Made by a program: the position numbers and the translations under genes
The notes under the pieces: model-generated
The model's input: the letters and a program-made list of their open reading frames with translations, nothing else
What the model was told of the DNA's origin: nothing
Databases searched by the model: none
Sequence record: HM035024
Source: Shigella phage Shfl1
Length of the DNA: 50,661 bases
Direction: 5' to 3' (one strand)
Shown: piece by piece, positions 2,195 through 41,583 of the stretch
How positions within the stretch are numbered: position 1 is the stretch's first letter
How the letters are laid out: the number at the start of each line of letters is the position of its first letter

Positions 2195-2422
2195 ATGCCA
2201 CATTACAGCAGCCTAACCAAACTGACCCGAGTCAACGGGCACATGATCCCGGCAAAATCCACTCACTACGCAATGGGCGCAAAACACGGAGTCTATTTCA
2301 AGTGGCGCGGTCAATGGAACTTCACGGCTGTGAACAATTTCTATATGCGCGTTCCTGGCGATGACCCGCAATCGGTAGTAGAGAACTCAATCGGCGACAA
2401 CAAGATCGAGGTGCTGAAATGA
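2195..2422 (+). CDS. hypothetical protein (75 aa)
   Basis: ORF with GAGGAA RBS 10 nt upstream. Confidence 0.5.
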   Translation: MPHYSSLTKLTRVNGHMIPAKSTHYAMGAKHGVYFKWRGQWNFTAVNNFYMRVPGDDPQSVVENSIGDNKIEVLK

Positions 2423-2529
2423 ACTTCAATACAATTGCATTATGGTCTGCCGTCTGGTTCTTCTGCATGGGTCACGCCATTGTTAGGATCGTAATCATGT
2501 TACTACTGTGTGCCGGAGCGTTCGAATGA
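2419..2529 (+). CDS. putative 36-aa hydrophobic peptide (MNFNTIALWSAVWFFCMGHAIVRIVIMLLLCAGAFE)
   Basis: ATGA start/stop overlaps at both ends link it to flanking genes; not in the ORF track (below 60 aa); hand translated. Confidence 0.25.
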   Translation: MNFNTIALWSAVWFFCMGHAIVRIVIMLLLCAGAFE

Positions 2530-2699
2530 TGCGCATTCTGATTTGCATGATGGCGGCAGTCGCCATAACTATCCTGGCTGTATCCGGTTGTGTGGAGGTA
2601 AAAGAGCGATGCCACGAAACCGGGAACCAGGTTACTACGTTCGTGATGGTCGGCAACGTATTGCTACCAATCACATCAAATGAGATCACTTGCGAATAG
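2526..2699 (+). CDS. small putative lipoprotein (57 aa precursor)
   Basis: N-terminal hydrophobic signal followed by lipobox-like LAVSGC; GGAG 10 nt upstream of internal ATG at 2526 (track ORF 2508..2699 trimmed). Confidence 0.45.
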   Translation: MMRILICMMAAVAITILAVSGCVEVKERCHETGNQVTTFVMVGNVLLPITSNEITCE

Positions 2700-2708
2700 G
2701 ATTTAACA

Positions 2709-2900
2709 ATGTCTGATTTTATGCACCAAATGATTGCAGTATTCAAAGGCAGTGATGATGAGGAGGTTAAAGAGTGCTTTAACGTTGACAAGTCTTATAA
2801 CGCGTCACTAACCAGCTTTGGTAATATCTCATTGCTTGATGATAATGGCGATCCCTGGATATTCGACGAAGACACTGATTGCTTCGAGATTAAAGAATAG
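2709..2900 (+). CDS. hypothetical acidic protein (63 aa)
   Basis: ORF with AGGA RBS; Asp/Glu-rich. Confidence 0.45.
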   Translation: MSDFMHQMIAVFKGSDDEEVKECFNVDKSYNASLTSFGNISLLDDNGDPWIFDEDTDCFEIKE

Positions 2901-2916
2901 CACTTTTTGTTAAAAC
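2897..2916 (+). promoter_or_regulatory. conserved motif ATAGCACTTTTTGTTAAAAC with TATAGT 18 nt downstream
   Basis: TATAGT 2935-2940 inside inverted repeat GGGGTT/AACCCC. Confidence 0.5.
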
Positions 2917-2970
2917 TCAATATCGGGGTTGCGATATAGTAACCCCATCAACAACGAACGAGGATTTATC

Positions 2971-3177
2971 ATGAAACTGCGGTGCATTGAATCAAATCAA
3001 ATTAACTACTCAGAAGGCTTCGAATATGTCGCTCAAATCGATAGCTTTACAAACAAAAACGGAGAGGTTATTGATGTGGTTCATGGAGTGTATACGTGGT
3101 TCTACTTTGACAAGAAAGCGCTAACAGCAACTAAGCGCAATGGTGATGTGGTGGCTAAATTTAAACGTGAACAATGA
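2971..3177 (+). CDS. hypothetical protein (68 aa)
   Basis: Start trimmed to ATG at 2971, preceded by CGAGGA RBS and conserved CATCAACAACGAA leader. Confidence 0.5.
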   Translation: MKLRCIESNQINYSEGFEYVAQIDSFTNKNGEVIDVVHGVYTWFYFDKKALTATKRNGDVVAKFKREQ

Positions 3178-3187
3178 GGACGATAGC

Positions 3188-3676
3188 ATGAAAATTAAAT
3201 TACTGAGCAATGGCGGTTACAAAGGCTTTACTCGCGATCTGGAAGCTGACCCTATCGTGGTTGACGCGGTGAAGCGTGATGATAGCTTGGGCGGCTACCG
3301 CGTTAAGGTTGACGACCTGGTTAAAGCTGGAGTGTACGATCTTGACTATGGGCTTTCGGTTAGCCCTGTATTTGGTCCGGCTGACTTCAACGAGAAAGAC
3401 GGAACGATGTTCTTCTTCGAATGGGAAGTCCTGGCAAATCCTAGACCGCGCAAGGTTCGACTTCTCAACAATGGCGGCTACCCGATGCGACCAGGTTATG
3501 AGAACCGCACGTTCCCGGTTATCGTGGACTTTACCGAAATCACTAACAACTTGGTCTACGTCAGCAATGAGCATCTCCAGGCTGTAGGATTCACTGGCGG
3601 TATGCATAAAGAGAGTTTGTGCTTCGTTCGCGAAGAAATGCCCGGTTACTATTCTGAGTGCGAGTTGGTTTACTAA
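3188..3676 (+). CDS. hypothetical protein with internal duplication (162 aa)
   Basis: Start trimmed to ATG 3188 (GAGGA RBS); two NGGY-containing repeats (LLSNGGYKGF / LLNNGGYPMR). Confidence 0.6.
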   Translation: MKIKLLSNGGYKGFTRDLEADPIVVDAVKRDDSLGGYRVKVDDLVKAGVYDLDYGLSVSPVFGPADFNEKDGTMFFFEWEVLANPRPRKVRLLNNGGYPMRPGYENRTFPVIVDFTEITNNLVYVSNEHLQAVGFTGGMHKESLCFVREEMPGYYSECELVY

Positions 3677-3693
3677 GCACGAATTGTTAAAAG
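3674..3693 (+). promoter_or_regulatory. conserved motif variant TAAGCACGAATTGTTAAAAG with TATAAT 18 nt downstream
   Basis: TGgTATAAT 3712-3717 inside inverted repeat GGGGATT/AATCCCC. Confidence 0.5.
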
Positions 3694-3747
3694 GGGATTC
3701 TGCCTGATTGGTATAATCCCCACATCAACCACTAAGAGGAAATCGAT

Positions 3748-4233
3748 ATGTTGAAATTAAACGAGATTAAATTCCCTGTAGTTTTTAACACTATTAGCTG
3801 CGGAAAAATAACCTGCCATAACAAAGATCGTGCAACAGATTCGTCATTCAATGAGTGTCATCCGTCTATTGTTGGCAATCTCATTGAACTTCATAACAAT
3901 CACAACCCCGATAACATCCCATCTCTTCCATATTATGTTGAGTATGCTGGTCCTGGTTGGAAGGCTGGTCGAGCAATCTTTCACTCGTCAAAGCCAGAAA
4001 TCAAGCTATCGCTACAGCGCACTCAGATCGAGAACATGCCATTGAGCGCAACGCTAAAAGGTATCCAGCTTGATAGCGAATCCTGGCTTGAAATCACCGC
4101 TACACCGAAAACTATTGAGGTACACGATGATGTGGTGATTCTCCTGTTGCATTACGGCGGCTTTAAGCACAAGACTGTATCAGGTGAAATAAGCATTAAG
4201 CGCGGAACGCTTGTACGCTACGAGGTGAAATAA
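3748..4233 (+). CDS. hypothetical protein (161 aa)
   Basis: ORF preceded by motif, TATAAT and AAGAGGAAA RBS. Confidence 0.6.
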   Translation: MLKLNEIKFPVVFNTISCGKITCHNKDRATDSSFNECHPSIVGNLIELHNNHNPDNIPSLPYYVEYAGPGWKAGRAIFHSSKPEIKLSLQRTQIENMPLSATLKGIQLDSESWLEITATPKTIEVHDDVVILLLHYGGFKHKTVSGEISIKRGTLVRYEVK

Positions 4234-4296
4234 TGAGCAACTGGTATAACGAACATGTAATGCAGTTTTACCGCAATCGCATCAAGAAAATTTTGA

Positions 4297-4316
4297 ACAG
4301 CACGAATTGCTAAACC
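4297..4316 (+). promoter_or_regulatory. conserved motif variant ACAGCACGAATTGCTAAACC with TATAGT 18 nt downstream
   Basis: TGaTATAGT 4335-4340 inside inverted repeat AAGGCCA/TGGCCTT. Confidence 0.5.
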
Positions 4317-4380
4317 TTCCGCAAGGCCATTTGATATAGTGGCCTTATTGAAGCACGGCAACCAATCAGAGGAATTAGCT

Positions 4381-4587
4381 ATGGCTACACGACTCACTCA
4401 GTGGCAGATTTACGACAAGGCATCACGCCTACGCGAATCACTTCGCGGATTGACAGCAAACGACAGAATGGAGATTATCGGGCACGCTTTGCACGAACTC
4501 ACGCCTCAGGACGTAACCTATCATTCATGCGGCAATAAATTCTGGAACGTAACATTCGAGGTAAAGAAAGATGAGCAAAACTCATAA
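4381..4587 (+). CDS. hypothetical protein (68 aa)
   Basis: Start trimmed to ATG 4381 after conserved leader CAACCAATCAGAGGAAT. Confidence 0.5.
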   Translation: MATRLTQWQIYDKASRLRESLRGLTANDRMEIIGHALHELTPQDVTYHSCGNKFWNVTFEVKKDEQNS

Positions 4588-4858
4588 GTTAAAAATTGCC
4601 CCGATCCATTTCATCGGTGTAATGAACGGCACAAAAACGGCAGAGTTCCGCATTAATGACCGCAACTTCCAGCCTGGCGATATCCTGGAGCTATGCGAGT
4701 TCGATCGGGGTGAGTTTACCAGGTGGGAAGTACATGCCAGGGTATCCGATGTTACAGACGTGACGCCATACATCAATAGCGGGTATGACGAGCAAGAATG
4801 CGACTTCACGCAATACGTGATGTTATCAATAAAACCTTACAGAAAGGTTAGACCATGA
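4571..4858 (+). CDS. ASCH-like (DUF3850-type) domain protein
   Basis: N-terminal pattern K-x-H-x-LKI-x-P-x-HF-x-GV-x-NG-x-KT-x-EFR-x-NDR-x-F-x-PGD matches the ASCH/DUF3850 signature from memory. Confidence 0.4.
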   Translation: MSKTHKLKIAPIHFIGVMNGTKTAEFRINDRNFQPGDILELCEFDRGEFTRWEVHARVSDVTDVTPYINSGYDEQECDFTQYVMLSIKPYRKVRP

Positions 4859-5493
4859 AATTTGAGTGCGTATCAAGTAGCGGATCTGGTTTCAAGTGGG
4901 GTAAGGTCTACGAAGGCGCTCGCGTCAATGACAATAGATTCGTCATCACGGATGAGCGCGGTAGAAATGTTAACGTTGTCCGGCGTCACGAATACCAGGA
5001 AATACTCCTTCCGTATGGCGGTAGCTCAAAATATATCTTCCATCGAATCGTGGATGGTGTTAAATTTAAAGACGTAATCGAAGCAATCAACCAACTGCAT
5101 AATAAAGAGGTCAAATTTATGAAATTCGAATGTATCAGTGATAACACCAAAAAATTTACCGTTGGCAAAATCTACGATGTGCCTACTGAGCACGCAAAGC
5201 ACACTGTAGCACTGACCGACGACACGGGCCGCCACCGCATTGCAACCGTAACGCACAACGGTGAAGGTCTTCGCTGGAATAGCGGCGGCACTAAATTCGC
5301 AACGTTCGGCAAGAAGCGCAAGCGTACTTTCTGCGTCAATGGCAAGGTTACAGCGAACAAGATCCACAACGTCAAGCCGTCAGAAGTTTACCGTAAGCCA
5401 GCGACGAAGTTTGAAGAGAAGGCAGATTTGTCTGGTCTGGCTATCGCTCTTGTTCTCCTTGTTGCTTCGATTTCGCTGCTGTTCATCATGTAA
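4855..5493 (+). CDS. membrane-anchored protein with tandem repeated domain (212 aa)
   Basis: Two copies of a KFEC(V/I)S...GK(V/I)Y module; C-terminal hydrophobic helix LSGLAIALVLLVASISLLFIM. Confidence 0.55.
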   Translation: MKFECVSSSGSGFKWGKVYEGARVNDNRFVITDERGRNVNVVRRHEYQEILLPYGGSSKYIFHRIVDGVKFKDVIEAINQLHNKEVKFMKFECISDNTKKFTVGKIYDVPTEHAKHTVALTDDTGRHRIATVTHNGEGLRWNSGGTKFATFGKKRKRTFCVNGKVTANKIHNVKPSEVYRKPATKFEEKADLSGLAIALVLLVASISLLFIM

Positions 5494-5500
5494 TGCTAAT

Positions 5501-5534
5501 GGGGAATCGGCTCTGAACGGTTCCCCTTTCTTTT
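5501..5534 (+). terminator. intrinsic terminator
   Basis: Hairpin GGGGAATCGG...CGGTTCCCC followed by TTTCTTTT. Confidence 0.5.
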
Positions 5535-5641
5535 GGAGAAAACACTATGCCAGACTTTTCTAACTGGAATAACGAGCCGCCATCATTTCAGGAGTTGCTA
5601 TTTTGCCTCCTGATCCTAACATTATCTCTTAAGGGTGTTTT

Positions 5642-5860
5642 ATGGCTACTATCATGACAGCAGAAGATGCAGCACACGATGCAGTGGAAGGGATGCGCCC
5701 AAATAGCTCCAGAATCGCCCACTACTACAAATCTGATGTGTCGGCAGTGCAATTGGTCCATGAAATTTTAAGGCTCCCACAAGTCGATTCAGCGCGCGTG
5801 GTGACGTGCTTAAAAAATTATTTTTGCATCACTATTAAAACGAATAGCACGAATTGCTAA
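5642..5860 (+). CDS. hypothetical protein (72 aa), doubtful
   Basis: ORF only; its 3' end runs through the conserved promoter motif at 5844. Confidence 0.25.
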   Translation: MATIMTAEDAAHDAVEGMRPNSSRIAHYYKSDVSAVQLVHEILRLPQVDSARVVTCLKNYFCITIKTNSTNC

Positions 5861-5863
5861 AAC
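5844..5863 (+). promoter_or_regulatory. conserved motif ATAGCACGAATTGCTAAAAC with TATGAT 18 nt downstream
   Basis: TATGAT 5882-5887 inside inverted repeat AGGGGAAT/ATTCCCCT. Confidence 0.5.
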
Positions 5864-5917
5864 CTATCAAGGGGAATGCGCTATGATTCCCCTACACCAA
5901 CAAACGAGGAATCACCA

Positions 5918-6364
5918 ATGAAACACTTAATTTGCATTGAAACGCCTAACGATGAATACACTCTTCACGGCATAGGAATGTTCAAAGGTCACTACATGAC
6001 AGCAAGTATTCATGATGCGCGTCTTTGCGATGGCGATCTGATGATTACGTCAAAAGAAGTAAATCCGTACATTATGCAGAATCTTGGCAATAACGAATAT
6101 ATGGCCTACGGCTGCAACGCCGTGTACAAGCATATCAAGATCCGCAAGCGTGTCGTGCGTGCATTCAAGAAGATTGCAATGAAATACTGGAAGATGAGCA
6201 AGAAGGACGCCGGACGCTGGGCGCGCAATGTTGCTGACTCGTACTTCTATCGTAACGGTGAGTCCTGCTACTTCCTGATCGATGAAATTATGGAAAACTA
6301 CGGTGGCGACTTCAGTCAGTGTAACTTTGACGATTGGGCTGACTATGAGATCAGTTGTTGGTGA
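5918..6364 (+). CDS. hypothetical protein (148 aa)
   Basis: Start trimmed to ATG 5918 after ACGAGGAA RBS and conserved leader. Confidence 0.55.
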   Translation: MKHLICIETPNDEYTLHGIGMFKGHYMTASIHDARLCDGDLMITSKEVNPYIMQNLGNNEYMAYGCNAVYKHIKIRKRVVRAFKKIAMKYWKMSKKDAGRWARNVADSYFYRNGESCYFLIDEIMENYGGDFSQCNFDDWADYEISCW

Positions 6365-6383
6365 TAGCACGAATTGCTAAAAC
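6364..6383 (+). promoter_or_regulatory. conserved motif ATAGCACGAATTGCTAAAAC with TAGAAT 18 nt downstream
   Basis: TGtTAGAAT 6402-6407 inside inverted repeat AAGGGCATT/AATGCCCTT. Confidence 0.5.
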
Positions 6384-6446
6384 TTGCTCAAGGGCATTTG
6401 TTAGAATGCCCTTCGTTGAGTTAAGCAACCAATCAGAGGAATCAAT

Positions 6447-6650
6447 ATGAAAACTATTACCGGAATGAGCAACGAAACGAGAACGCAGATCGTTAACATG
6501 CTAATCGGGATGGCTGACGATATTCAGAATAGCCATGTCGTTATTGATTCATGCAATCAGACTCGTGAGAGTAAATTTGAATCATCCGGCTACAAAATTG
6601 TTGAAGAAGAATTAACCATCAAAATCATTCGCGTACAGGAGAAAGCATAA
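6447..6650 (+). CDS. hypothetical protein (67 aa)
   Basis: ORF preceded by CAACCAATCAGAGGAAT leader. Confidence 0.5.
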   Translation: MKTITGMSNETRTQIVNMLIGMADDIQNSHVVIDSCNQTRESKFESSGYKIVEEELTIKIIRVQEKA

Positions 6651-7183
6651 TGGATAAAATCACAATTTGGGGTCAGACAATCAACCTGTTTCTCGGCACT
6701 TGCCGCGTGGCAATCTTTGACTTCGACGGAACACTGAGTGACGGCTCAAAACGTCTTCACCTGCTACCGACGAAAGATTTGCACTTGACGGAAAGCTGGT
6801 CTGAGTTTAACAGGGCGGCAATATTTGATAACCCAATCCATAGTACGATTGAAGTGATGAACTCTATGCATGCCTCTGGTCATTATGTGATCATTTTAAC
6901 TGGGCGAAGTGATGAGGTGCGTTACGAATCTGAGTTATGGCTTAAGCATCACGGCGCTCGATATGATTACTTAGTCATGAGGCCGCATACCGACAACCGC
7001 AAAGACACGGTAATGAAAGAAGAGGCTGTGCGCGCGATCGGCATTGATAACATTCTGGCGGCTTGGGATGACTCACCGCAAATTATTCCATTATTCCGTT
7101 CGCTTGGAATAACTACGTATGCTGTAGTTGACTATGGCGATAACGTTCACGATCATTTAAAATATCACGGGGTGGATGAATGA
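6650..7183 (+). CDS. HAD-superfamily phosphatase (polynucleotide 3'-phosphatase-like)
   Basis: HAD motif I FDFDGTLSDG (DxDGT); later motifs IILTGRS and AAWDDSP; resembles the T4 Pnk phosphatase domain. Confidence 0.6.
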   Translation: MDKITIWGQTINLFLGTCRVAIFDFDGTLSDGSKRLHLLPTKDLHLTESWSEFNRAAIFDNPIHSTIEVMNSMHASGHYVIILTGRSDEVRYESELWLKHHGARYDYLVMRPHTDNRKDTVMKEEAVRAIGIDNILAAWDDSPQIIPLFRSLGITTYAVVDYGDNVHDHLKYHGVDE

Positions 7184-7290
7184 ACCTATACGAATTTATT
7201 GCAGCGCATCCGGTATTGACGGTTATCATCCTGTTAATCATCAATCACACTATCATCAATGTGGCAAAATTATTTTTAGGGAGATGCTAA
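7180..7290 (+). CDS. putative 36-aa hydrophobic peptide (MNLYEFIAAHPVLTVIILLIINHTIINVAKLFLGRC)
   Basis: ATGA overlap with upstream stop; hand translated; below ORF-track size cutoff. Confidence 0.25.
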   Translation: MNLYEFIAAHPVLTVIILLIINHTIINVAKLFLGRC

Positions 7291-7291
7291 C

Positions 7292-7864
7292 ATGAAAACA
7301 GCTATCATTTTAAACGGCGCACCTGGATCTGGAAAAGACACTATCGGATGTATCCTGGCTGACACTTACGATCACGTAGCCTTGCGCAGCTTCAAAGCGC
7401 CAATGTTTGAGATTGCCCGGGCAATCCTGGGTGAAGCTAACTACGAGTATTTCATGTTCTTATATGAGGACCGTCGATATAAAGAAGAGCCAGCATCAAT
7501 CCTGAACGGTAAAAGCCCACGCCAGTTTATGATCTGGATTAGCGAGGAAGTCATCAAGCCGCAGTTCGGAAATCGCTTCTTCGGTATGCGAGCGGAAAGC
7601 AAAGTGAAAGAGTCGCACTCCCTTTCGGTATTTACTGACGGTGGATTCAAAGACGAAATCTTGCAGATGATTGAAGGTGATATCCAGGTCAAGCTATGTC
7701 GAATACATCGCAACGGCTGCAACTTCGATAATGACAGTCGAGACTATATCTACCTGGATGATATGATCGGTGTCAACGGTTATCAAGAATGTGACTTCTT
7801 CTCTGTCGAAGGTCATCCAGAAATTACCGCTCATCACATAGCCGCCACATTCATCAATAAATAG
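7292..7864 (+). CDS. P-loop nucleotide kinase (dNMP-kinase-like or polynucleotide-kinase-like)
   Basis: N-terminal Walker A ILNGAPGSGKDT, as in T4 gp1 dNMP kinase and Pnk kinase domains. Confidence 0.55.
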   Translation: MKTAIILNGAPGSGKDTIGCILADTYDHVALRSFKAPMFEIARAILGEANYEYFMFLYEDRRYKEEPASILNGKSPRQFMIWISEEVIKPQFGNRFFGMRAESKVKESHSLSVFTDGGFKDEILQMIEGDIQVKLCRIHRNGCNFDNDSRDYIYLDDMIGVNGYQECDFFSVEGHPEITAHHIAATFINK

Positions 7865-7880
7865 CACGAATTGCTAAAGC
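7861..7880 (+). promoter_or_regulatory. conserved motif ATAGCACGAATTGCTAAAGC with TATAGT 18 nt downstream
   Basis: TGaTATAGT 7899-7904. Confidence 0.5.
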
Positions 7881-7936
7881 GTCGATGGGGTGATTTGATA
7901 TAGTTACCTCATCGACAACGAATAGAGAAAATCGAA

Positions 7937-8146
7937 ATGATGGTATCAACTGATAAGTTTTTTACTTGCACTAAAACTTCCGAGGTATTCGAACTGGTTC
8001 ATACTGACAACGGTGATTTCATGCATGACGGTTGCGACGTTTTCATTGAAGTGAAAGAAAGCGACTATGACGAAGGAGTTTATTACAACCCGGCAGTTAA
8101 CACGCAGTTTTTTACCCCGATCGAGGAAGATGGAGAAGAGGCATGA
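7937..8146 (+). CDS. hypothetical acidic protein (69 aa)
   Basis: ORF; about 17 Asp/Glu against 3 Lys. Confidence 0.5.
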   Translation: MMVSTDKFFTCTKTSEVFELVHTDNGDFMHDGCDVFIEVKESDYDEGVYYNPAVNTQFFTPIEEDGEEA

Positions 8147-8487
8147 TTACGATTAACCTGTCAGAGAAGCAAGCTCGTGAAATCCTGGATACGATCGGCG
8201 ACCAGTTACACATCAAAGGCGCTACCGCCGAACTTCTTAACCAGATCGAAAGGCAGCTTACCCCAGCATCAACGAATCAATCTGAGTTTGCGACCTGGAA
8301 GAGCGAGCGCATCTTGCCAAATATCATCAATGCATGGAAGCGCAAGCATAAAAAAGAAATCAACGTTGAGGATTTATTTACCGATGAATTAAGTCCTTCA
8401 AAGGTTGCTCAATATCAGTTGCGATACATGGAATCAGTTTGCAATCAGGTTTTAGGTGCTAATTTTTCATTTGGGAGAGGTAAATAA
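8143..8487 (+). CDS. hypothetical protein (114 aa)
   Basis: ORF; ATGA overlap with previous gene. Confidence 0.5.
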   Translation: MITINLSEKQAREILDTIGDQLHIKGATAELLNQIERQLTPASTNQSEFATWKSERILPNIINAWKRKHKKEINVEDLFTDELSPSKVAQYQLRYMESVCNQVLGANFSFGRGK

Positions 8488-8717
8488 TGTTCGGTTTAAG
8501 TGAAGCAGAATGGAACGTGGTAAAGCGCGCGGCGAAGGAATTAAATAAATTCGTCAGTGGCATGAAAAAAGAAGATCGGAAAAACGACAAAATCATGATT
8601 GACGTTATTTCTGCTCACCACAAAAAGGTCGAATTACTCATCGATCGCTACAAATTTGTCTGGACTGCCGGGTATATTGCCGGGCGCGTAGGTAACAAAG
8701 AAGGGGATTACGAATAA
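8487..8717 (+). CDS. hypothetical protein (76 aa)
   Basis: ORF; overlapping stop/start with neighbours. Confidence 0.5.
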   Translation: MFGLSEAEWNVVKRAAKELNKFVSGMKKEDRKNDKIMIDVISAHHKKVELLIDRYKFVWTAGYIAGRVGNKEGDYE

Positions 8718-8920
8718 TGGCTAATTTACCAAAGAAAGGCGATCAGGTTCGATGCGTAACGTCACGCAGTGGCGATGCTTTCTCTGCTGGCTGCTCTTAC
8801 GATGTGGAAAAGATTAGTAAAGCAAAGAGACTTGTGTATGTGTACGGCGACGATGGAAACTTGCATGAGATTGATTACCCGCAGGATATGACTAAGGGTC
8901 AATTTGAAATTAATGATTGA
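8717..8920 (+). CDS. hypothetical protein (67 aa)
   Basis: ORF; overlapping stop/start. Confidence 0.5.
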   Translation: MANLPKKGDQVRCVTSRSGDAFSAGCSYDVEKISKAKRLVYVYGDDGNLHEIDYPQDMTKGQFEIND

Positions 8921-9085
8921 CCTGAATCCCTGAGCGGTGATAGTATTAATCCCGTAGACATACGAGGCGCAATGAGTCGCAACGCGTGAGACGATTCTCA
9001 CCATTCCAGCTAACAAGCTCGGTTGCATAGTGGTTAAGCAACGCCGCAGACCCGTAAGCGGCAACAATTCAAGAGGATTGCATAA

Positions 9086-9247
9086 TGCAAAACAATAAAG
9101 ACGAATCAGTAAAAATTGAAATTAAAGTAACTCGCAACGGTGAAACCACTCGTTATAAAAAGCGATTAAATCCTGGCGAGGCTGTTATTGGTCGCATTGC
9201 TGGCGTTATGATTAAGGCGCAGGAAGATGAAGCGATTCAAAGTTAAA
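9086..9247 (+). CDS. small hypothetical protein (53 aa, MQNNKDESVKIEIKVTRNGETTRYKKRLNPGEAVIGRIAGVMIKAQEDEAIQS)
   Basis: Hand translated; AAGAGGA RBS 7 nt upstream; below ORF-track cutoff. Confidence 0.35.
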
Positions 9248-9413
9248 TTAATTATTCGAAAGATGGGAATGTTTTGCCAGTCGTGCAAACAATCTTTCGA
9301 AACAGAATTATCTGCAACCAGTCAGGCAGAAGCCATCACGAAAGCGAAGAAACTTTCAGGCGCTAATCTTGACACTCACAAAATAAACATTGAATTAATC
9401 AAGGAGATTTAAC

Positions 9414-33872: not shown

Positions 33873-35653
33873 TTGGACTTCAACATTTTTATCTCTTCTT
33901 GTAACTCTTCAACTTTCTTTATTGTATCCTGCAAAGCTCTCATAGTGTCAAGCAATAAAGGAGTTGTATCAAGCTCAAGCCTTTCAACTTTTGGCCCGTT
34001 TAGCTCGTGGCTCTCATACAACCTTCTCTTAACATATAGATTGTCGATCTCTTCTATCTCCTGAGCTATAACACCTCGCCTTACCCTTTCTTGCTCATCA
34101 TCGTTAAATATAAAGTTCCTAAATCTCATTGATTTTATATTGTTGTATGCAATGCTTGATTCATCATCCTTTATGCTGTGCTTTATATTTCTGTCAGATG
34201 CCGGAACTTGTTGGAAACTTCCAGCCCCTTGCGGTCCAGCGTAAGATATTTGCCCTGAAGCCATAAACCTGAAATGCATTTGCAGACCAATATTGCCTGC
34301 TCCATCCCTATCTTGAGCACCTACTGATATTTGTGCCCTGGGCCATTCAGGATTGCCCGTAGTCATCATGCCAAAAGCTACGCCGCCAACGTACCCTTGC
34401 CCCCTCGTATCACACGATCCAGCAACAAGCGATTGATAGTTTTCAGCACCACTATCGGCGGTGAAAGCATTTCCTTGAAAGCATGAAGCGGACCACATCT
34501 GGTTATAACCCATAGTTGTTTTCTGGCATAAAAACTGATTGGATCTGAATCTATTGTTAGTCTCGAAGTAGTTTGCATATTCGTAAAATAATAAAGTCCC
34601 AGCATATCCATCACTGCCATTTTTTTTTCTGACGTAAATCCCTGGCTCAGACACTCCATCAGGTGACATAATCATCAATGATGACAATATGGACTGACTA
34701 CCCCAGTTAGAACCGTCCCATGAGTTCCTTCCTGCACCTATAGCCCCGGTGGTGTTAATAGTAAGAAAGTTAACAGCATCATTTTCACCTAACCCAATAT
34801 TTTTTCTAGACTCTTTTTTGTTCACAAGACCAGAGAGATTACCATCCTTAGTTAAAAGATTATCGGCATTAATGCTATTAGCTGCGTCTTTAGCTTCTTG
34901 AGCGCTTACCGAAGCCGCATCTTTTGATCTTACGGCATCGTCACGCGCTGCCTGAGCATCGTTTTTTGCAGAGGTTGCCGTTTGCGCTGCCGTTTGAGCG
35001 TCGTTAACGTAAACCGATAAATCACCTTTAGCATCATTAATTGCCTGAATAGCCGAAGCCTCTTCCGTGTCGATGTGAGAGATGACAGATGATTCCTTAG
35101 AGCCGATATCAGTGATAGCCTGATCTTTTGCGGCATTAATTCCACCGACAGCACTGTCAACAATCTGCTGTGTCTGATTCTTGATTGAGTTAGTTTCATC
35201 ACGCGCAGCGTTGGCTGCGTCACGCGCTAATTCAGCCTGATTTTGCGCAGCTTGAGAATCAGATTTCGCCTTATTCACATCAGCAACTATTTGCTCAAGT
35301 TTATTCATATCAAGCTGATTTATCAGATCTATAGCTGCCGCGATCTCAGTCTCTTTGCTTTGATAGTATCGAAGCGTCTCGGCAACGTTTTGAGCTAAGC
35401 CGTTAACAGTTAACGAATCGTTAAGCAAGATCACATACTTTCCGTCAGATGCGGTCTGACCATCCGTAGAGATAGCCTTTAGCTCTGTGTCGCTCACAAT
35501 ATCGCTAATTACAGCCAGCTTAATTGGTTGCTCCAGGAATACGATAGTTGCACCGACTCGAATCAGAGCAAGCTGATCTTTCCATTTTGTATCTGTTCCG
35601 TGAACCGTACCGTCTGCATCCATTGATGCAGTACCGCGTCTGTATAAAGCCAT
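33869..35653 (-). CDS. tail fibre protein with C-terminal intramolecular chaperone (peptidase S74-like) domain
   Basis: 594 aa; C-terminal segment ...SDRNIKHSIKD...LLDTMRALQDTIKKVEELQEEIKMLK matches auto-cleaving chaperone domains of endosialidase and T5 L-shaped fibres; Ala/Gln/Asp-rich coiled stalk. Confidence 0.75.
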   Translation of the reverse strand: MALYRRGTASMDADGTVHGTDTKWKDQLALIRVGATIVFLEQPIKLAVISDIVSDTELKAISTDGQTASDGKYVILLNDSLTVNGLAQNVAETLRYYQSKETEIAAAIDLINQLDMNKLEQIVADVNKAKSDSQAAQNQAELARDAANAARDETNSIKNQTQQIVDSAVGGINAAKDQAITDIGSKESSVISHIDTEEASAIQAINDAKGDLSVYVNDAQTAAQTATSAKNDAQAARDDAVRSKDAASVSAQEAKDAANSINADNLLTKDGNLSGLVNKKESRKNIGLGENDAVNFLTINTTGAIGAGRNSWDGSNWGSQSILSSLMIMSPDGVSEPGIYVRKKNGSDGYAGTLLFYEYANYFETNNRFRSNQFLCQKTTMGYNQMWSASCFQGNAFTADSGAENYQSLVAGSCDTRGQGYVGGVAFGMMTTGNPEWPRAQISVGAQDRDGAGNIGLQMHFRFMASGQISYAGPQGAGSFQQVPASDRNIKHSIKDDESSIAYNNIKSMRFRNFIFNDDEQERVRRGVIAQEIEEIDNLYVKRRLYESHELNGPKVERLELDTTPLLLDTMRALQDTIKKVEELQEEIKMLKSK

Positions 35654-35673
35654 AGTATAAACTCCTTAAGTAA

Positions 35674-35715
35674 ATAGCACGAATTGCTAAACAATGATTT
35701 TATCATTGTGCTATC
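35674..35715. promoter_or_regulatory. inverted pair of motif copies between tail fibre start and primase stop
   Basis: ATAGCACGAATTGCTAAAC followed by AATGATTTTATCATTGTGCTAT. Confidence 0.35.
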
Positions 35716-35729
35716 TGACTTGCAATGGA

Positions 35730-35756
35730 CAATAAAAAACCGCCAGAAGGCGGTTA
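35730..35756 (-). terminator. intrinsic terminator after primase (minus strand)
   Basis: Minus strand AACCGCCTTCTGGCGGTT followed by T6. Confidence 0.6.
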
Positions 35757-36689
35757 GAGTAGGTCACTCGCTGAGAATAACTTGGCTTGCATCCCTGAGC
35801 GGTATCCTCCATGATTTGGGATGATTATTTTTAATTGTCGGTCGTCTGCCATGTATAAAGTCTCCTTGTCTGAAGGTTCGCACGCAACCCTTACTTCTCG
35901 ATCCCCTTTATATCTGTATGCAACCATTTCCAGATTCTCAGGAGTGAAGCAGGCCCATACCTCTTGCTTTGTGTGAAATGCAATATGCTGAGCATCAATC
36001 CAATTAAGGCATAAGTAGATCGCTTTTTCTGTTTTACCAGTCACGGCAACCGAACAACTCGTATATTTCTTAGCGTAAAACGATTCCCTTCCTTCTTCAT
36101 CAATAATCAAAATATTGCAAAACTCGTCATCAAGACCGTCCTCGTGTACAAGTTGACACGGGATAGTGTGAAATACGCTCTCCCTGCCATCATCGCGACG
36201 TTTTACGCCAACGTCGAATGATTCAGTTGGTAGAGATTCAAACATGCTTAGAGGTGTGTTTACGCGCTTCTCTGTGCGCTCCATTACTTTCATCACTTCT
36301 TCATGATCTGCCATCATCACATTGACACCAGACACCGGAGTCCTGCGTGCTTTCTTGTTTGCCTTGACGATGTATTCCTGAGGGACTTTTCCGAGAAATC
36401 TTCCCAGGATGTTTATGCAATCGCTATACGGCATACCAGTTAACTTCATCAACCAACCGATCCCGGAGTCGTTACCGCATGAGTTGCAGATCGCACCGCC
36501 GTCTCCTGGAGTGTTCAGATTATCAGTCCAGCGAAAGCGGTCTTTACCTCCGCAGTTAGGGCAAGGTTGGTGCTTCTTGTTGAAAACCTCGTTAGGTAAT
36601 CCGCATACGGACTGGAACGCCTCGCGCCATAACCCATTCATATACGGCAATACGTCCTCTTTCTGAAACATCATAAATTCTTCGTTCAC
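35754..36689 (-). CDS. DNA primase (zinc-ribbon plus Toprim-like)
   Basis: N-terminal CPNCGGKDRFRW...GGAICNSCG matches the primase-helicase zinc-binding domain; GTG start with GGAG RBS. Confidence 0.6.
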   Translation of the reverse strand: MNEEFMMFQKEDVLPYMNGLWREAFQSVCGLPNEVFNKKHQPCPNCGGKDRFRWTDNLNTPGDGGAICNSCGNDSGIGWLMKLTGMPYSDCINILGRFLGKVPQEYIVKANKKARRTPVSGVNVMMADHEEVMKVMERTEKRVNTPLSMFESLPTESFDVGVKRRDDGRESVFHTIPCQLVHEDGLDDEFCNILIIDEEGRESFYAKKYTSCSVAVTGKTEKAIYLCLNWIDAQHIAFHTKQEVWACFTPENLEMVAYRYKGDREVRVACEPSDKETLYMADDRQLKIIIPNHGGYRSGMQAKLFSASDLL

Positions 36690-36702
36690 TTCCAGATCTC
36701 CA

Positions 36703-36741
36703 AATAAAAAACGCGTAGAAGGATGTTACCCCGCTACGCGT
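36703..36741 (-). terminator. hairpin/T-run between HTH regulator and primase (minus strand)
   Basis: 8-bp stem ACGCGTAG/CTACGCGT with 15-nt loop followed by T6 on minus strand. Confidence 0.4.
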
Positions 36742-36746
36742 CGTTT

Positions 36747-36766
36747 GTTTTAACTAAAAATGCTAT
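36747..36766 (-). promoter_or_regulatory. conserved motif (minus orientation) overlapping 3' end of HTH regulator gene
   Basis: Reverse complement reads ATAGCATTTTTAGTTAAAAC. Confidence 0.4.
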
Positions 36767-37202
36767 TGGTCGTCCCGATATCTTCCTTCTTCACCACTCG
36801 CATAAACTTCTTGTTCTTGCATCGCTTCTCTAGGCACTTGCCGTTACCGTCAAACTTGAGGTCGAATCGCAACCATGCGGCGCGGAATCCTTTACAACCC
36901 TGACGACGGTAAGCACGATGTGCAGCTTCAGCACCTTGCCACGAAATCATGTTGCGCTCCTTCCATCCCTGCACGGTCTGATTGCTAACTTTCAGAGCCT
37001 TTGCGCAGGCCGCAGGGCCGCCATAATATTCGATAAGAGCATCAAGTCTCGCTCTCAGTCCGGCGCGTGTTTCTTCTTTATGGATATAGAAACCGCAGCG
37101 TTGGCGTGGCTTTTTATCTTTACCGCGTCTCGTTCCGTTGTTACCATTGATGTGACGTTTATCGATTTCACCAGTTGACTCTGCGATGCGTTGCATATTC
37201 AT
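36750..37202 (-). CDS. putative HTH DNA-binding regulator (Cro/YdaS-like)
   Basis: GGPAACAKALKVSNQTVQGWKERNMISWQ resembles Cro/YdaS-type helix-turn-helix; basic N-terminus; start trimmed to ATG 37202 (AGGAG RBS). Confidence 0.4.
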   Translation of the reverse strand: MNMQRIAESTGEIDKRHINGNNGTRRGKDKKPRQRCGFYIHKEETRAGLRARLDALIEYYGGPAACAKALKVSNQTVQGWKERNMISWQGAEAAHRAYRRQGCKGFRAAWLRFDLKFDGNGKCLEKRCKNKKFMRVVKKEDIGTTNSIFS

Positions 37203-37214
37203 CTTAATTCTCCT

Positions 37215-37235
37215 GTAGCACTTTTTGCTAAAAAC
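37215..37235 (+). promoter_or_regulatory. conserved motif GTAGCACTTTTTGCTAAAAAC upstream of helicase, divergent from HTH regulator gene
   Basis: TATTAT about 18 nt downstream (37253-37258). Confidence 0.45.
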
Positions 37236-37296
37236 GTTTACTGTATGTCGTGTATTATAGCGTAAACGATACAATGATTCAAAGGATTAAATAGCC

Positions 37297-39315
37297 GTGA
37301 CAATTAACATCAAGAAGCAAATCGCATTACTTGGCGAGGACTATATAAAACGCACTCAAGAACGATTCACTGTCGGTGAGGTCGTTCCTTATCCGTATCA
37401 GGTTGTTGCTTATGCCGAGATCGCAAAACGCCTGTCAAATTACGAGCATCCATTCTTTGTTAAAGCGTCAGTATCTGCGGGTAAAACAATCATATTCGCT
37501 ATGGTGGCAAAGCAGTGTCAAAAAATGGGCCTGAAAATGCTTGTGCTTGCCCGACAGGGTGAGATCGTCGATCAGGATAGTGAGGAGATCGACAACTTCG
37601 GGGTAACGAACTCCATCTTCTCAGCATCGCTTGGAATCAAGTCCTGCTACTTCCCGATCGTGGTTGGCTCTGAGGGTACGGTTGCAAATGGCCTCGACAA
37701 TGAGTTGGCTGATTTTGTCCCGCATGTAATTGGGATCGACGAATGTCACCAGGTGGATTGGGAAGACCTTGCTCAAGCCATCGAAGGAAAAGAAACGATG
37801 GAGCAGATGAGGGGCGAGAAAGGGAAAATTATTATGGACGGGGAGATTCCTCTGATTGGTAATGACGGGAAACCTTTACTTGGAACTAAGCGAAGCCAGT
37901 ATACGATCGTAATCATGGAGATGATGCGTCGCTGTAAAGAGATTCACGGGCATGACCTCAGAATATTTGGCATGACAGGATCTGAATTTAGGGGCGTTGT
38001 TCCGATTCTGGTGGAGAATCCAAAGGCGTTAGGATTCTGGCGTGAGCGCGTAACTGATATCGACACAAACTATCTGATTGAGTTTGGCTCTGTTGTGCCG
38101 ACGATATTCGGTTCGACTGACGGAGTACACTACGATCTGGATAAGTTCAAGGCATCAAGCGAGGACGGCGTACAGGACTTTGCAGAGAAAGATATGAAGG
38201 CAATGGAAGATGAGATCCTTCATGATAAATCTCTTACTCAGCGAATCATGCAAATGGTCGCCAAAAAGGCTGAAGAACGTAACGCGGTTCTGATTACATG
38301 CGCGGGTGTGCGTCACTGTAAAGAGGCGGCGGCGGCACTGCCTCCAGGAAGCACCTATGCAATAATCACTGGCGACACAGACACCAAAACGCGCAAGAAG
38401 ATTCTGGACGATGTAAGGGCCGGGAAGATTAAATACACCTTTCAGGTAATGGCTCTCACTACTGGCGTTAACGTTCCAAATTGGGATTTCAGTGTCATAC
38501 TCCGCAAGATAGGATCTCTCACTCTGTTGATTCAGCTTTTGGGTAGGGGTATGCGGCTGCTTAAATCATGGCAGGTTGCTGAAGGAATGGTTAAGCAAGA
38601 CCATCTGGTATGGGATTTCGCTGGCACTATGGATGAGTTGGGCCAACTTTATTTCGATCCGATACTTGAGCAGGCGCAATTCCAGAAGCGTTTTGAAAAC
38701 GGCAAAGACCCGAAAACGTGTCCTAAGTGTGGTTGCGTTAATAGCTTCTACGCTCGCCGATGCGTTAACGTTATAGACGGTGAGAGATGCGATCACTTCT
38801 GGACTTCTCAGATTTGCGAGGACCAGGTTGATGAGCGAACCGGGAAAATTCTTGTTAAAGGATGTGGTGCCGAGAATGACGTTGTCGCCCGAGTTTGTCG
38901 TTGCTGTGATGTGTCACTTGTCGATCCTAACCTGAAATTGTCCGGCAAGGCGTACACCAAGAATGACTGGTATGAGGTCAAGAATTTTGAGGTAACGCTA
39001 ACCAAAAACCAAAAGGGCGTGATATACAAATACACGCTGATTAACGATGATGGTGATGAGTTCAAGGCGTATGAAAAATTCTTCCCCGAGTCCGACTCTA
39101 AGATTTGCGGTACGCTATGGAAAACTAAGGGTGTATTGCCTCATGTGTCAGATCCTAAAATGCGTCGCTACTTTATCGGAATGAAGAACGCAATCAAGAT
39201 CGTGCAGTACTCACATCATATTGCTCATCCGGTACGAGTCACACACCGACGCAACCAGAAGAAGGAAGATATTATTTCACGTAAAGATTTCGGTATGGAG
39301 GATATCCCGCAATGA
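37297..39315 (+). CDS. SF2 helicase (DEAD/DEAH-box-like) with C-terminal zinc-finger region
   Basis: Walker A SVSAGKT; DExH box GIDECHQ; C-terminal Cys clusters CPKCGC...CDHFW and CRCC; GTG start. Confidence 0.7.
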   Translation: MTINIKKQIALLGEDYIKRTQERFTVGEVVPYPYQVVAYAEIAKRLSNYEHPFFVKASVSAGKTIIFAMVAKQCQKMGLKMLVLARQGEIVDQDSEEIDNFGVTNSIFSASLGIKSCYFPIVVGSEGTVANGLDNELADFVPHVIGIDECHQVDWEDLAQAIEGKETMEQMRGEKGKIIMDGEIPLIGNDGKPLLGTKRSQYTIVIMEMMRRCKEIHGHDLRIFGMTGSEFRGVVPILVENPKALGFWRERVTDIDTNYLIEFGSVVPTIFGSTDGVHYDLDKFKASSEDGVQDFAEKDMKAMEDEILHDKSLTQRIMQMVAKKAEERNAVLITCAGVRHCKEAAAALPPGSTYAIITGDTDTKTRKKILDDVRAGKIKYTFQVMALTTGVNVPNWDFSVILRKIGSLTLLIQLLGRGMRLLKSWQVAEGMVKQDHLVWDFAGTMDELGQLYFDPILEQAQFQKRFENGKDPKTCPKCGCVNSFYARRCVNVIDGERCDHFWTSQICEDQVDERTGKILVKGCGAENDVVARVCRCCDVSLVDPNLKLSGKAYTKNDWYEVKNFEVTLTKNQKGVIYKYTLINDDGDEFKAYEKFFPESDSKICGTLWKTKGVLPHVSDPKMRRYFIGMKNAIKIVQYSHHIAHPVRVTHRRNQKKEDIISRKDFGMEDIPQ

Positions 39316-39728
39316 TTACAGACAAAGGAGATTACTTAGAGTTTTACGAGCGAGATCCCAGCGACACTCGAAAGGAGGACGCGCACCAGGTAGATTGCGT
39401 GTCCTGGCTGAAATACAATTTCCCACACCTTCTATTTTGGCACACTGTCAATGAAGGTGAAAAAACAATCACTTCAGCACTCAGGGATGAGCAGGCTGGA
39501 TTACTTAAAGGCGTGTCAGACTTCGTTATCCTGATTGGTGTAAACTCACGCCACCCGTTCGCAGCTATCGAACTCAAACGGGTTAATAAGTCCGGCAAAG
39601 GAAAGGCATCACCAGTCAGCGATAAGCAAAAGGAATTTCTCCGTAAGGTTCGCGAACGCGGTGGATTCTCTGCGGTGGCTTACGGATTTGAGCAATTCAA
39701 GATCGCAATTTACGAAATGATGAAATAG
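39312..39728 (+). CDS. VRR-NUC domain nuclease
   Basis: PD-(D/E)XK-type core VSDFVILIG ... AAIELKRVNKSG ... SDKQKEFL typical of VRR-NUC. Confidence 0.55.
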   Translation: MITDKGDYLEFYERDPSDTRKEDAHQVDCVSWLKYNFPHLLFWHTVNEGEKTITSALRDEQAGLLKGVSDFVILIGVNSRHPFAAIELKRVNKSGKGKASPVSDKQKEFLRKVRERGGFSAVAYGFEQFKIAIYEMMK

Positions 39729-39744
39729 CACTTTTTGTTAAAAC
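39725..39744 (+). promoter_or_regulatory. conserved motif ATAGCACTTTTTGTTAAAAC upstream of Dam methylase
   Basis: TGgCATTAT 18 nt downstream (39763-39768). Confidence 0.45.
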
Positions 39745-39795
39745 TGCCGGAATGGAATCTGGCATTATTATTTCACCAAAACGAGAGGACTAAAA

Positions 39796-40509
39796 ATGAA
39801 AGACTTCAATGATATTGAAACCATAGACTTTGCAGAAACTGGTTGCTCATTTACTCGCGAAGCAATAGCATCAGGCGGTTATTATCAGGCGCTAAAAACG
39901 CCAACATGCAAAGAGATTTCAGGTCGTCGATATAAGGGTACAAACACACCTGACGCCGTTCGTGATTTATGGTCGACTCCGCGCGAGGTTATTGCATACC
40001 TTGAGGGGCGATACGGAAAATATGATCTCGACGCTGCGGCAAGCGAAGAAAATAAAGTTTGCGATAAGTTTTATTCTCAGGAAACAAACTGCTTAAAACG
40101 TTGGTGGGGTAAAAATAAGCATGTGTGGCTAAATCCCCCTTATAGCCGACCTGATATGTTCGTCAAGAAGGCGATCGAGCAAATGGAGCACAACAACCAG
40201 ATCGATATGTTGTTACCTGCCGATAACTCGACGGCGTGGTTTACTGAGGCGCGACAGCACGCGGCTGAAATCATCTGGATTGAAGCGGATTTGACTGAGG
40301 ATATCGACGGGAATGAGTACGCACGATCAGGTCGCCTGGCGTTCATATCCGGTGAAACAGGAAAGGCGGTTGACGGCAACAACAAAGGTTCGGTAATTTT
40401 CATTATGCGAGAACTTAAAGAGGGTGAGACACAGCAAACTCACTATATCCCAATCACAAGCATTTGCCCTTCAGTGAAAAACAAACGCGCAAAAGTGAGG
40501 AAATTATGA
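39796..40509 (+). CDS. dam: DNA N6-adenine methyltransferase (phage Dam-like)
   Basis: Catalytic motif NPPYS (WLNPPYSRPDMF). Confidence 0.65.
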   Translation: MKDFNDIETIDFAETGCSFTREAIASGGYYQALKTPTCKEISGRRYKGTNTPDAVRDLWSTPREVIAYLEGRYGKYDLDAAASEENKVCDKFYSQETNCLKRWWGKNKHVWLNPPYSRPDMFVKKAIEQMEHNNQIDMLLPADNSTAWFTEARQHAAEIIWIEADLTEDIDGNEYARSGRLAFISGETGKAVDGNNKGSVIFIMRELKEGETQQTHYIPITSICPSVKNKRAKVRKL

Positions 40510-40757
40510 TGAACGAGAAAATGATTCAGGTTAAGTTAACTGATCAAGGTTTATGGCTGCTTTATCGAGCTACGTGCTGCGAAATTATGGAGCGAAACGG
40601 ATTGACTCAGGATGTTATTGGTTGCGATCTGTGGGAGTTCACTAGTTCTCTTGATATGTCTTTCGATGAGATAAAAAATGAATATATCGAGAATTGGCCT
40701 TCAATTATCCAGAAGGACGTAGATGAACTTAAAGCAGATACGATCGTACAGCACTAA
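40506..40757 (+). CDS. hypothetical protein (83 aa)
   Basis: ATGA overlap with Dam stop; start trimmed to 40506. Confidence 0.45.
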   Translation: MMNEKMIQVKLTDQGLWLLYRATCCEIMERNGLTQDVIGCDLWEFTSSLDMSFDEIKNEYIENWPSIIQKDVDELKADTIVQH

Positions 40758-40767
40758 TTGCTAAAAA
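40748..40767 (+). promoter_or_regulatory. conserved motif variant ACAGCACTAATTGCTAAAAA with TATAGT 18 nt downstream
   Basis: TATAGT 40786-40791 after inverted repeat CCCGGCGAAAGTCGGG. Confidence 0.45.
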
Positions 40768-40823
40768 TACCCGGCGAAAGTCGGGTATAGTTATTTCATC
40801 GATACGAAATGAGGAATCAAAAG

Positions 40824-41033
40824 ATGGCACGCATTAACGAAAACTTTTTCAATATAGCTCAACAGTCCGCAAAAATGGCTGTTCATATCACTAATGAGAA
40901 AGGCGGCAACTTTGATTGGGATATTGCCATGAACTTCCTTAAAATGGCTTATTACCTATGCTCAGTCAAAGATATTGAGTGTTTTATTGAAAGCGTGGAG
41001 AAACTAACTAATGCTGATAAAAAAACAAGGTAA
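40824..41033 (+). CDS. hypothetical protein (69 aa)
   Basis: Start trimmed to ATG 40824 after motif, TATAGT and GAGGAA RBS. Confidence 0.5.
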   Translation: MARINENFFNIAQQSAKMAVHITNEKGGNFDWDIAMNFLKMAYYLCSVKDIECFIESVEKLTNADKKTR

Positions 41034-41283
41034 ACGAGAGGTTTGGGAGCACGCGAAGGAATGCGGAATCTCAGAAGATATAGCACTAATAGCAAAATAT
41101 TTCGATATAAAGGATGTTAGCATTATCTCAAACGGAAAGATTTCATTTATGGAAGATATGCCGAGAAAAATGCATAGAGTGCCAGCCACCCCATCACTTG
41201 AGTTTTATCGTGAAGAAGGAAAGAGAATTGAGCGAGAACGAAAGAACGCAAAGAACAACAAGCCTTCCAGGCTTAAATATTAA
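41011..41283 (+). CDS. hypothetical protein (90 aa), uncertain frame
   Basis: ORF overlapping 41114..41515 in another frame; weak RBS; A7 run at 41016-41022. Confidence 0.3.
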   Translation: MLIKKQGKREVWEHAKECGISEDIALIAKYFDIKDVSIISNGKISFMEDMPRKMHRVPATPSLEFYREEGKRIERERKNAKNNKPSRLKY

Positions 41284-41515
41284 CTCAGATGACTACCAGA
41301 CAATATGGATTGGGAAAAAGCAGGTTAAGCAAATCCCTTTCTCTGACTGGTTGCCACCTGACTTTGTTAACGTGCTTTGCACTATCGGTATTGAGCAGGA
41401 GTTGCATATAGGTTACTACTCACCAGGCAGAAACAGTATGATGCTTGAGGTTGACGGAAAACTTGTTGAGTTTAAATCTTCGGATCTAGGATTCTGGTTA
41501 AAGGCTGTGGCATGA
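41114..41515 (+). CDS. hypothetical protein (133 aa), uncertain start
   Basis: ORF overlapping 41011..41283; no convincing RBS at 41114. Confidence 0.3.
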   Translation: MLALSQTERFHLWKICREKCIECQPPHHLSFIVKKERELSENERTQRTTSLPGLNINSDDYQTIWIGKKQVKQIPFSDWLPPDFVNVLCTIGIEQELHIGYYSPGRNSMMLEVDGKLVEFKSSDLGFWLKAVA

Positions 41516-41583
41516 AACTTTATTTTGCTGTAGTATTAACACCGCTAATTTCATTTTCAGTAATGTATTTCATTATCATGTAA
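41512..41583 (+). CDS. putative 23-aa hydrophobic peptide (MKLYFAVVLTPLISFSVMYFIIM)
   Basis: ATGA overlap with upstream stop; hand translated. Confidence 0.2.
   Translation: MKLYFAVVLTPLISFSVMYFIIM

Follow-up and report, generated by a model that had tools for sequence, protein, structure and literature searches.

Three probable hydrophobic micro-genes in Shigella phage Shfl1 and the retention of one of them across the Drexlerviridae

Do very short open reading frames (ORFs) that start on the stop codon of the preceding gene encode peptides, or are they accidents of a closely packed genome? The question is raised by Shigella phage Shfl1 (HM035024), of which a stretch of 50,661 nucleotides (nt), hereafter the window, was analyzed. 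This window comprises nearly all of a T1-like siphophage genome (Tunavirus, Drexlerviridae), with an identity of ~90-97% to numerous Tunavirus isolates of E. coli and to the Shigella phages phiL, pSf-2, and SH6. A sequence-only reading of this DNA had singled out three micro-ORFs on the plus strand as encoding hydrophobic peptides, namely ORF1 (2419..2529; 36 amino acids (aa), MNFNTIALWSAVWFFCMGHAIVRIVIMLLLCAGAFE), ORF2 (7180..7290; 36 aa, MNLYEFIAAHPVLTVIILLIINHTIINVAKLFLGRC), and ORF3 (41512..41583; 72 nt, 23 aa, MKLYFAVVLTPLISFSVMYFIIM), and when the sequence was read again their coordinates, peptides and ATGA overlaps all proved exact. We consider that the three are probably genuine, mutually unrelated micro-genes coupled to their neighbors, each encoding one hydrophobic alpha-helix that is most likely inserted into a membrane. 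Substitution patterns among related phages show purifying selection on the ORF1 and ORF2 peptides, restricted to the coding frame of each, and comparison of divergent loci shows that ORF3 is maintained across the family; on these grounds the view that the micro-ORFs are real is upheld.

The simplest alternative is that the ORFs lie in non-coding spacers and are open by chance. They are very short, and of the 616 ATGA sites on both strands of the genome about one quarter (147) open an ORF of 20-45 codons. The ATGA junction is, moreover, ordinary operon grammar in this phage, as four of the eight on the plus strand connect ordinary genes. However, only three of the 147 frames have a Kyte-Doolittle mean of 2.2 or higher over 17 residues; the script returned this count alone, and we took the three to be ORF1, ORF2, and ORF3, each of which starts at ATGA and scores 2.23-2.34. 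Among short ATG-initiated ORFs in all six frames (n = 244), 2.5% attain the same hydrophobicity. Each of the three occupies, on the coding strand, an otherwise unassigned intergenic gap, and when the gaps of 45 nt or more (n = 35) were roughly mapped, four were filled by a hydrophobic micro-ORF (ORF1-3 and a further one at 5547..5657). Against chance also stand the frame-specific substitution patterns and the maintenance of ORF3 in divergent loci described below. Judged from these conservation data, the chance reading is already contradicted and we find it scarcely credible.

The second part of the original proposal, one hydrophobic helix per peptide, is borne out by hydropathy for all three and by AlphaFold2 helices for ORF1 and ORF2. 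Maxima over 19 residues on the Kyte-Doolittle scale were 2.27 (ORF1), 2.22 (ORF2), and 2.24 (ORF3). Like small single-pass membrane proteins, all three peptides have at most 50 aa and one hydrophobic stretch of bilayer-spanning length. The AlphaFold2 model of ORF1 is a single helix over residues 3-35 (predicted local distance difference test score, pLDDT, 92), and that of ORF2 has helices at residues 3-9 and 11-35 (pLDDT 87).

ORF1 has been recognized before, as a hypothetical gene. The phrog_25570 profile aligns with the whole peptide (E 4.2e-26, residues 1-36 on profile positions 1-36), and the gene corresponds to T1 gp73 (ST73, YP_003871.1), which lies in the same place between the ST74 (DUF7274) and ST72 (lipoprotein) genes; SH6 gp7 and phiD2-2 GP24 are the same gene. 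The likeness to T1 gp73 extends to the 36-aa length, the position and the full-length hidden Markov model (HMM) match, but the family has no assigned function, so membership names ORF1 without explaining it. The frame is intact in 13 of 13 relatives, with 36 codons in all 12 Tunavirus loci from IMG/VR and 40 aa in one more distant relative. The ratio of non-synonymous to synonymous differences per site (pN/pS) is 0.115 in frame, vs. 1.2 and 2.8 in the other two frames, and variable sites fall at codon positions 1, 2, and 3 in the numbers 8, 6, and 22.

ORF2 is an orphan that has been annotated only occasionally. It had no match in PHROG or Pfam, and a HMMER pass through 1.84 billion representative proteins returned one matching 50%-identity cluster, that of Tunavirus itself. 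Within this genus ORF2 is intact in 10 IMG/VR loci, with ATG or GTG as start codon, and its pN/pS of 0.10 in frame contrasts with values >1 out of frame (5/3/15 variable sites at the three codon positions). In some phages the phosphatase gene upstream is 26 codons longer, and ORF2 then starts without ATGA, at a GTG that follows a Shine-Dalgarno sequence (AAGGAG-N7-GTG). This shift in start context argues that the ORF is what is kept, and not the overlap. Two candidate relationships of ORF2 were considered and rejected. ORF2 and ORF3 both begin with MNLY and carry Pro at position 11, but the ORF3-family HMM gave ORF2 no match at E <10, and paralogy was dismissed. In other Drexlerviridae genera the slot 5′ of the kinase-like gene that follows ORF2 is filled by unrelated genes, some of which encode proteins of 92-102 aa with a C-terminal membrane anchor; none of these positional analogs is homologous to ORF2.

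ORF3 is near-universal in the Drexlerviridae. We surveyed 80 loci of this family, retrieved through the exonuclease protein encoded directly downstream (identity down to 60%), and by tblastn coordinates a hydrophobic ORF of 22-26 aa ends 1-26 nt before the exonuclease start in 76 of them. In two further loci, of the Tls type, the homolog lies 5′ of an inserted HNH gene, which brings the total to 78 of 80. Carriers come from at least four subfamilies and include T1 (Tunavirinae), Rtp (Braunvirinae), Tls and ESh4 (Tempevirinae), AHS24/Rogue1 (Rogunavirinae), and Webervirus. The gene 5′ of ORF3 varies by genus; the linkage of ORF3 to the exonuclease gene persists. None of the 31 distinct peptides contains Asp or Glu, and most variants share Lys/Arg at position 2-3, Pro in mid-helix, Tyr close to position 19 and Met close to position 23. 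Between genera nucleotide identity drops to 41-64% while hydrophobicity is retained, and the guanine-plus-cytosine (GC) content of the homologs spans 25-46%, a range which indicates that the hydrophobicity is not a by-product of AT-richness. Taken together, the divergence and the GC range argue that the hydrophobic peptide is what is maintained. When the ORF3-family HMM was run against all small ORFs of the window it found ORF3 alone (E 6e-13; next best E 1). Small hydrophobic phage proteins are a known class, to which ORF3 adds a new member found across the Drexlerviridae. A role as holin or antiholin was rejected: ORF3 has no PHROG or Pfam match, and the lysis cassette is elsewhere, with holin, endolysin, and spanin genes at 43080-44211, past the exonuclease gene, and in T1 a terminator in between. 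Conservation of the ORFs in related phages, which the sequence-only reading had proposed as a check, was thus found for all three. Its treatment of them as a set did not survive the comparison, as they differ in family, distribution, and dispensability.

How could a gene of this breadth have been overlooked? The expectation that such peptides are often missed in annotation proved right to differing degrees. A coding sequence (CDS) is annotated over ORF1 in ~22 of 50 annotated Tunavirus records and over ORF2 in ~13 of 49. For ORF3, 58 GenBank Tunavirus records matched, 56 of them annotated, and not one of the 56 has a CDS there; the records of T1, phiL, phi2457T, LeonhardEuler, and Rtp show a gap of ~80 nt in its place. 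From 348 Webervirus records we took a spread of 40, and 2 of the 34 annotated ones have a CDS at ORF3. The exact 23-25-aa peptides were not found in a collection of 15 billion proteins, in which the only form of ORF3, present once, is a 29-aa version extended at the N-terminus (90 nt). The default length cut-off of standard gene callers is 90 nt, and ORF3 measures 72 nt, vs. 111 nt for the ORFs that have been annotated; this cut-off is the likely reason for its absence. A catalog of small proteins likewise required a modified Prodigal with a lower size limit (PMC11364881). Two annotations run across ORF3 homologs. In Rogunavirus AHS24 a 39-aa CDS (LA65_gp47) lies over the homolog (MKTLLPLMAMPLTFIIMYFIIC) in a different frame, which is probably a wrong-frame call, since the hydrophobic frame is the one conserved family-wide. 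In Tls the HNH gene endY sits between the ORF3 homolog and the exonuclease gene, and its annotated start runs across the homolog.

If the frames are real, are the peptides needed, or only the passage of ribosomes? A second alternative holds that the ORFs are spacers for translational coupling, similar to upstream ORFs (uORFs), which ribosomes traverse and whose peptides have no function. The layout of all three junctions speaks for it. The ATG of ORF1 (2419) overlaps the TGA of a 75-aa DUF7274 gene (2195..2422, plus strand; PF23939, E 5e-40), the last codons of which contain the Shine-Dalgarno GAGGT of ORF1, and its own TGA overlaps the ATG (2526) of a 57-aa lipoprotein gene (2526..2699, plus strand; T1 ST72, phrog_8628), whose lipobox VSGC was read from the sequence. 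The ATG of ORF2 (7180) overlaps the TGA of a polynucleotide kinase/phosphatase gene (6650..7183, plus strand; PF25109 HAD_PNKP, E 3e-17), and 1 nt separates its end from the ATG (7292) of a P-loop deoxynucleoside monophosphate (dNMP) kinase-like gene (7292..7864, plus strand; phrog_139, E 1e-46), whose Shine-Dalgarno GGGAG lies inside the last codons of ORF2. The ATG of ORF3 (41512) overlaps the TGA (41513..41515) of a T1 gp17-like gene (41228..41515, plus strand; annotated in phiL and T1; phrog_4596, phrog_38834), and 10 nt separate its end from the ATG (41594) of a metallophosphoesterase-type DNA repair exonuclease gene (T1 gp16; 41594..42745, plus strand; phrog_704, E 5e-157). Here the Shine-Dalgarno TAAGGA of the exonuclease gene is fused to the ORF3 stop codon, and this fusion, TAAGGA(G), recurs in most genera. 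Each of the three ORFs has a plausible Shine-Dalgarno or coupled start, and the arrangement would fit termination-reinitiation coupling.

As in a leader peptide or uORF, then, initiation of the next gene is coupled to the end of the ORF in all three cases, by stop-Shine-Dalgarno fusion or by an embedded Shine-Dalgarno. The spacer reading can also draw on the HNH gene that is able to stand in for ORF2, and on a nucleotide-level constraint at ORF3 that reaches into the exonuclease initiation region. What a spacer does not account for is that the peptides are not free to vary. The pN/pS of ORF1 and ORF2 is 0.10-0.12, low in no frame but their own, and ORF3 preserves a physicochemical pattern, that is, a hydrophobic helix, an N-terminal base, the Pro, Tyr, and Met positions and the lack of acidic residues, over the whole range of GC content. 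Moreover, Tls and FSL SP-126 retain ORF3 despite the HNH gene between it and the exonuclease gene. We regard pure coupling as unlikely. Insertion by ATGA overlaps, which the sequence-only reading took as the mark of these ORFs, did not turn out to be a defining feature either: ORF2 begins elsewhere with the GTG behind AAGGAG, and ORF3 comes in other genera, Webervirus among them, with a ribosome-binding site (RBS) of its own and a spacer.

Several observations weigh against genuine membrane micro-genes and must be set beside those that favor them. In the window, ORF1 has Arg23 in mid-helix, where all other sampled relatives have Gly (G23R). ORF2 is absent from T1, JMPW2, and Eco_BIFF, which have an HNH endonuclease gene in its place, a replacement which implies that ORF2 is dispensable. 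Of the 80 loci surveyed for ORF3, one lacks it and one has a nonsense codon at codon 3; with the absences of ORF2, this indicates that neither gene is strictly essential. The pN/pS of ORF3 across genera is only ~0.6, which we attribute to saturation of substitutions. Finally, within Tunavirus the synonymous differences per site (pS) of ORF3 amount to 0.044, vs. 0.32 in the exonuclease gene. This ~7-fold reduction means that some constraint acts on the nucleotides and not on the peptide. HNH homing-endonuclease genes were seen at the exact micro-ORF junctions, T1 ST63 in place of ORF2 and Tls endY at ORF3.

What, then, does the nucleotide sequence of ORF3 carry? Forty-eight of 58 GenBank records are 100% identical over 41518-41590 (73 nt), vs. 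90-98% identity in the surrounding 1 kb. No other 72-nt window in 2.3 kb varies as little as the ORF3 stretch, which has 1-4 variable sites vs. a typical 10-35; for comparison, the lowest counts near ORF1 and ORF2 were 15 and 6. An invariant run (41559-41613) continues through the start of the exonuclease gene, and the near-invariant block as a whole (41520..41613, without assigned strand) extends over most of ORF3 and the exonuclease RBS as far as nucleotide 20 of the exonuclease gene. In Webervirus the dip at ORF3 is milder (pS ~0.11-0.13 vs. 0.26-0.28). No RNA element or plus-strand promoter was found that would account for the invariance within Tunavirus: an Rfam scan of the whole window gave no match, the fold of 41480-41620 was no better than that of shuffled sequence (z -0.07), and no plus-strand promoter was found inside ORF3. 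A 12-nt direct repeat, ATTTCATT[T/A]TCA, lies within ORF3 at 41548-41559 and 41567-41578 (plus strand), 19 nt apart and in differing codon phases; considered as a regulatory motif, the repeat (ATTTCATTWTCA, twice in ORF3) has no other exact copy in the genome.

One explanation of the invariance would be that ORF3 is an Ibs-like, membrane-depolarizing type I toxin controlled by a cis-antisense RNA, whose pairing would fix the nucleotides. In size and hydrophobic composition ORF3 resembles the Ibs peptides, and IbsC of E. coli (b4665, MMRLVIILIVLLLISFSAY) has in common with the Tunavirus variant found in the window the residues LISFS. There is, in addition, a promoter-like site on the minus strand (41600..41572; GTGACA-17-GATAAT, 10 of 12 matches), inside the invariant block and pointing antisense through ORF3. 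Its position, however, is not conserved in other genera, promoter matches around ORF3 are no commoner than in shuffled sequence, and neither the fold nor the Rfam scan gave an RNA signal. The peptide likeness fares no better, as IbsC scores 1.3 bits on the ORF3-family HMM, on which basis homology was rejected, and the same seven identities are reached by 2.2% of IbsC shuffles (p ~0.02, for the window variant only). ORF3 also differs from IbsC in lying in a lytic phage operon. A type I toxin at this site is very improbable, and it, pure coupling, and chance are all less well supported than genuine membrane micro-genes.

A bolder form of the micro-gene reading would join the two levels of constraint: ORF3 would be a family-wide, specific host-membrane effector with a functional tie to the exonuclease, and in Tunavirus the same 90 nt would carry a second, nucleotide-level signal. 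Candidates for this signal would be an operator, a cis-antisense RNA, or a homing or recombination site, and it would account for the ORF3 stretch being the most invariant DNA in ~8 kb of comparisons. We offer this proposal tentatively and think it rather doubtful as it stands.

If the three are genuine micro-genes, as we favor, their mode of action can be sketched from sequence features. Each micro-ORF would be translated within a tightly packed operon, coupled on its 5′ side by a start codon that overlaps or closely follows the preceding stop, and on its 3′ side by the RBS of the next gene inside or directly after its last codons. The helix of each peptide would insert into the host inner membrane, that of ORF3 presumably with the N-terminus in, since its only charge is the Lys or Arg at position 2-3. 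Too small to be catalysts, the peptides would act by binding or perturbing components of the host envelope, for instance in superinfection exclusion or host take-over. Both membrane insertion and a modulator role are thus predictions for these peptides. ORF1 belongs to the gp73 family, which always stands beside a small lipoprotein gene in the early left-end region, and ORF2 is a dispensable accessory gene of Tunavirus only. ORF3 and the exonuclease gene form a conserved two-gene unit, in which ORF3 would also deliver ribosomes to the exonuclease start; it probably combines this delivery with a function of its peptide. A search of the literature on small proteins of T1 and the Drexlerviridae, on ribosome profiling and on membrane effects found nothing relevant.

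Known systems offer partial parallels. AcrZ, MgtS, KdpF, and CydX are small single-pass inner-membrane proteins of bacteria that bind larger membrane complexes. ORF1-3 are like them in having 20-50 aa, one hydrophobic helix and almost no soluble part and in being routinely missed by gene callers; they differ in being phage-encoded, and the likeness is one of size and helix. That a phage peptide of such size can be a specific effector is shown by the 26-aa T4 Stp, which targets a host complex, although Stp is hydrophilic and cytoplasmic, unlike the hydrophobic ORF1-3; the window also encodes a true Stp homolog (4233-4313). Small phage envelope proteins that serve superinfection exclusion include T4 Imm, HK97 gp15, and the T5 lipoproteins Llp and Cor. 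Such proteins are envelope-targeted, as ORF1 is predicted to be, and often adjoin lipoprotein genes, as ORF1 does, but they are usually larger than ORF1-3, and no homology to them was detected in the PHROG and Pfam scans. That ORF1 is paired with a lipoprotein gene that evolves fast hints at a role in the envelope or in exclusion.

T1-like phages have been isolated widely and feature in therapy collections, e.g., those for Klebsiella (Webervirus) and Shigella/E. coli (Tunavirus). The ORF3 sequence is found in more than 400 GenBank records though the annotations sampled omit the gene, a concrete case of small genes escaping annotation. ORF1-3 provide three short and easily synthesized peptides with which host-envelope effects could be sought. 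Should ORF3 have a specific host target, it would represent a new phage-host interaction common to the whole family.

Some further features of the window deserve mention. The lipoprotein gene beside ORF1 (2526-2699) is more variable than ORF1 itself and changes far more rapidly than the genes around it (pN/pS 0.41; variable sites 40/46/53), and such fast evolution is what an envelope or exclusion factor might show. The gene at 6650-7183 that is called a polynucleotide kinase contains the phosphatase (HAD_PNKP) only, and the P-loop kinase-like protein is encoded by the separate gene across ORF2 (7292-7864). A 26-aa ORF at 4233-4313 (plus strand; MSNWYNEHVMQFYRNRIKKILNSTNC), whose start codon begins on the final base of the stop codon before it, was matched to phrog_6763, “activator of host PrrC lysyl-tRNA endonuclease” (T4 Stp-like; E 3.5e-14). 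It occurs in some Tunavirus phages only, T1 having the unrelated 49-aa ST69 there, and Citrobacter phage Stevie and U136B are annotated accordingly. The fourth hydrophobic micro-ORF, which the sequence-only reading had missed, lies at 5547-5657 (plus strand; 36 aa, MPDFSNWNNEPPSFQELLFCLLILTLSLKGVLWLLS). It is T1 ST67 with one residue changed, is preceded by a terminator-like hairpin, and shares 16 nt with the next gene.

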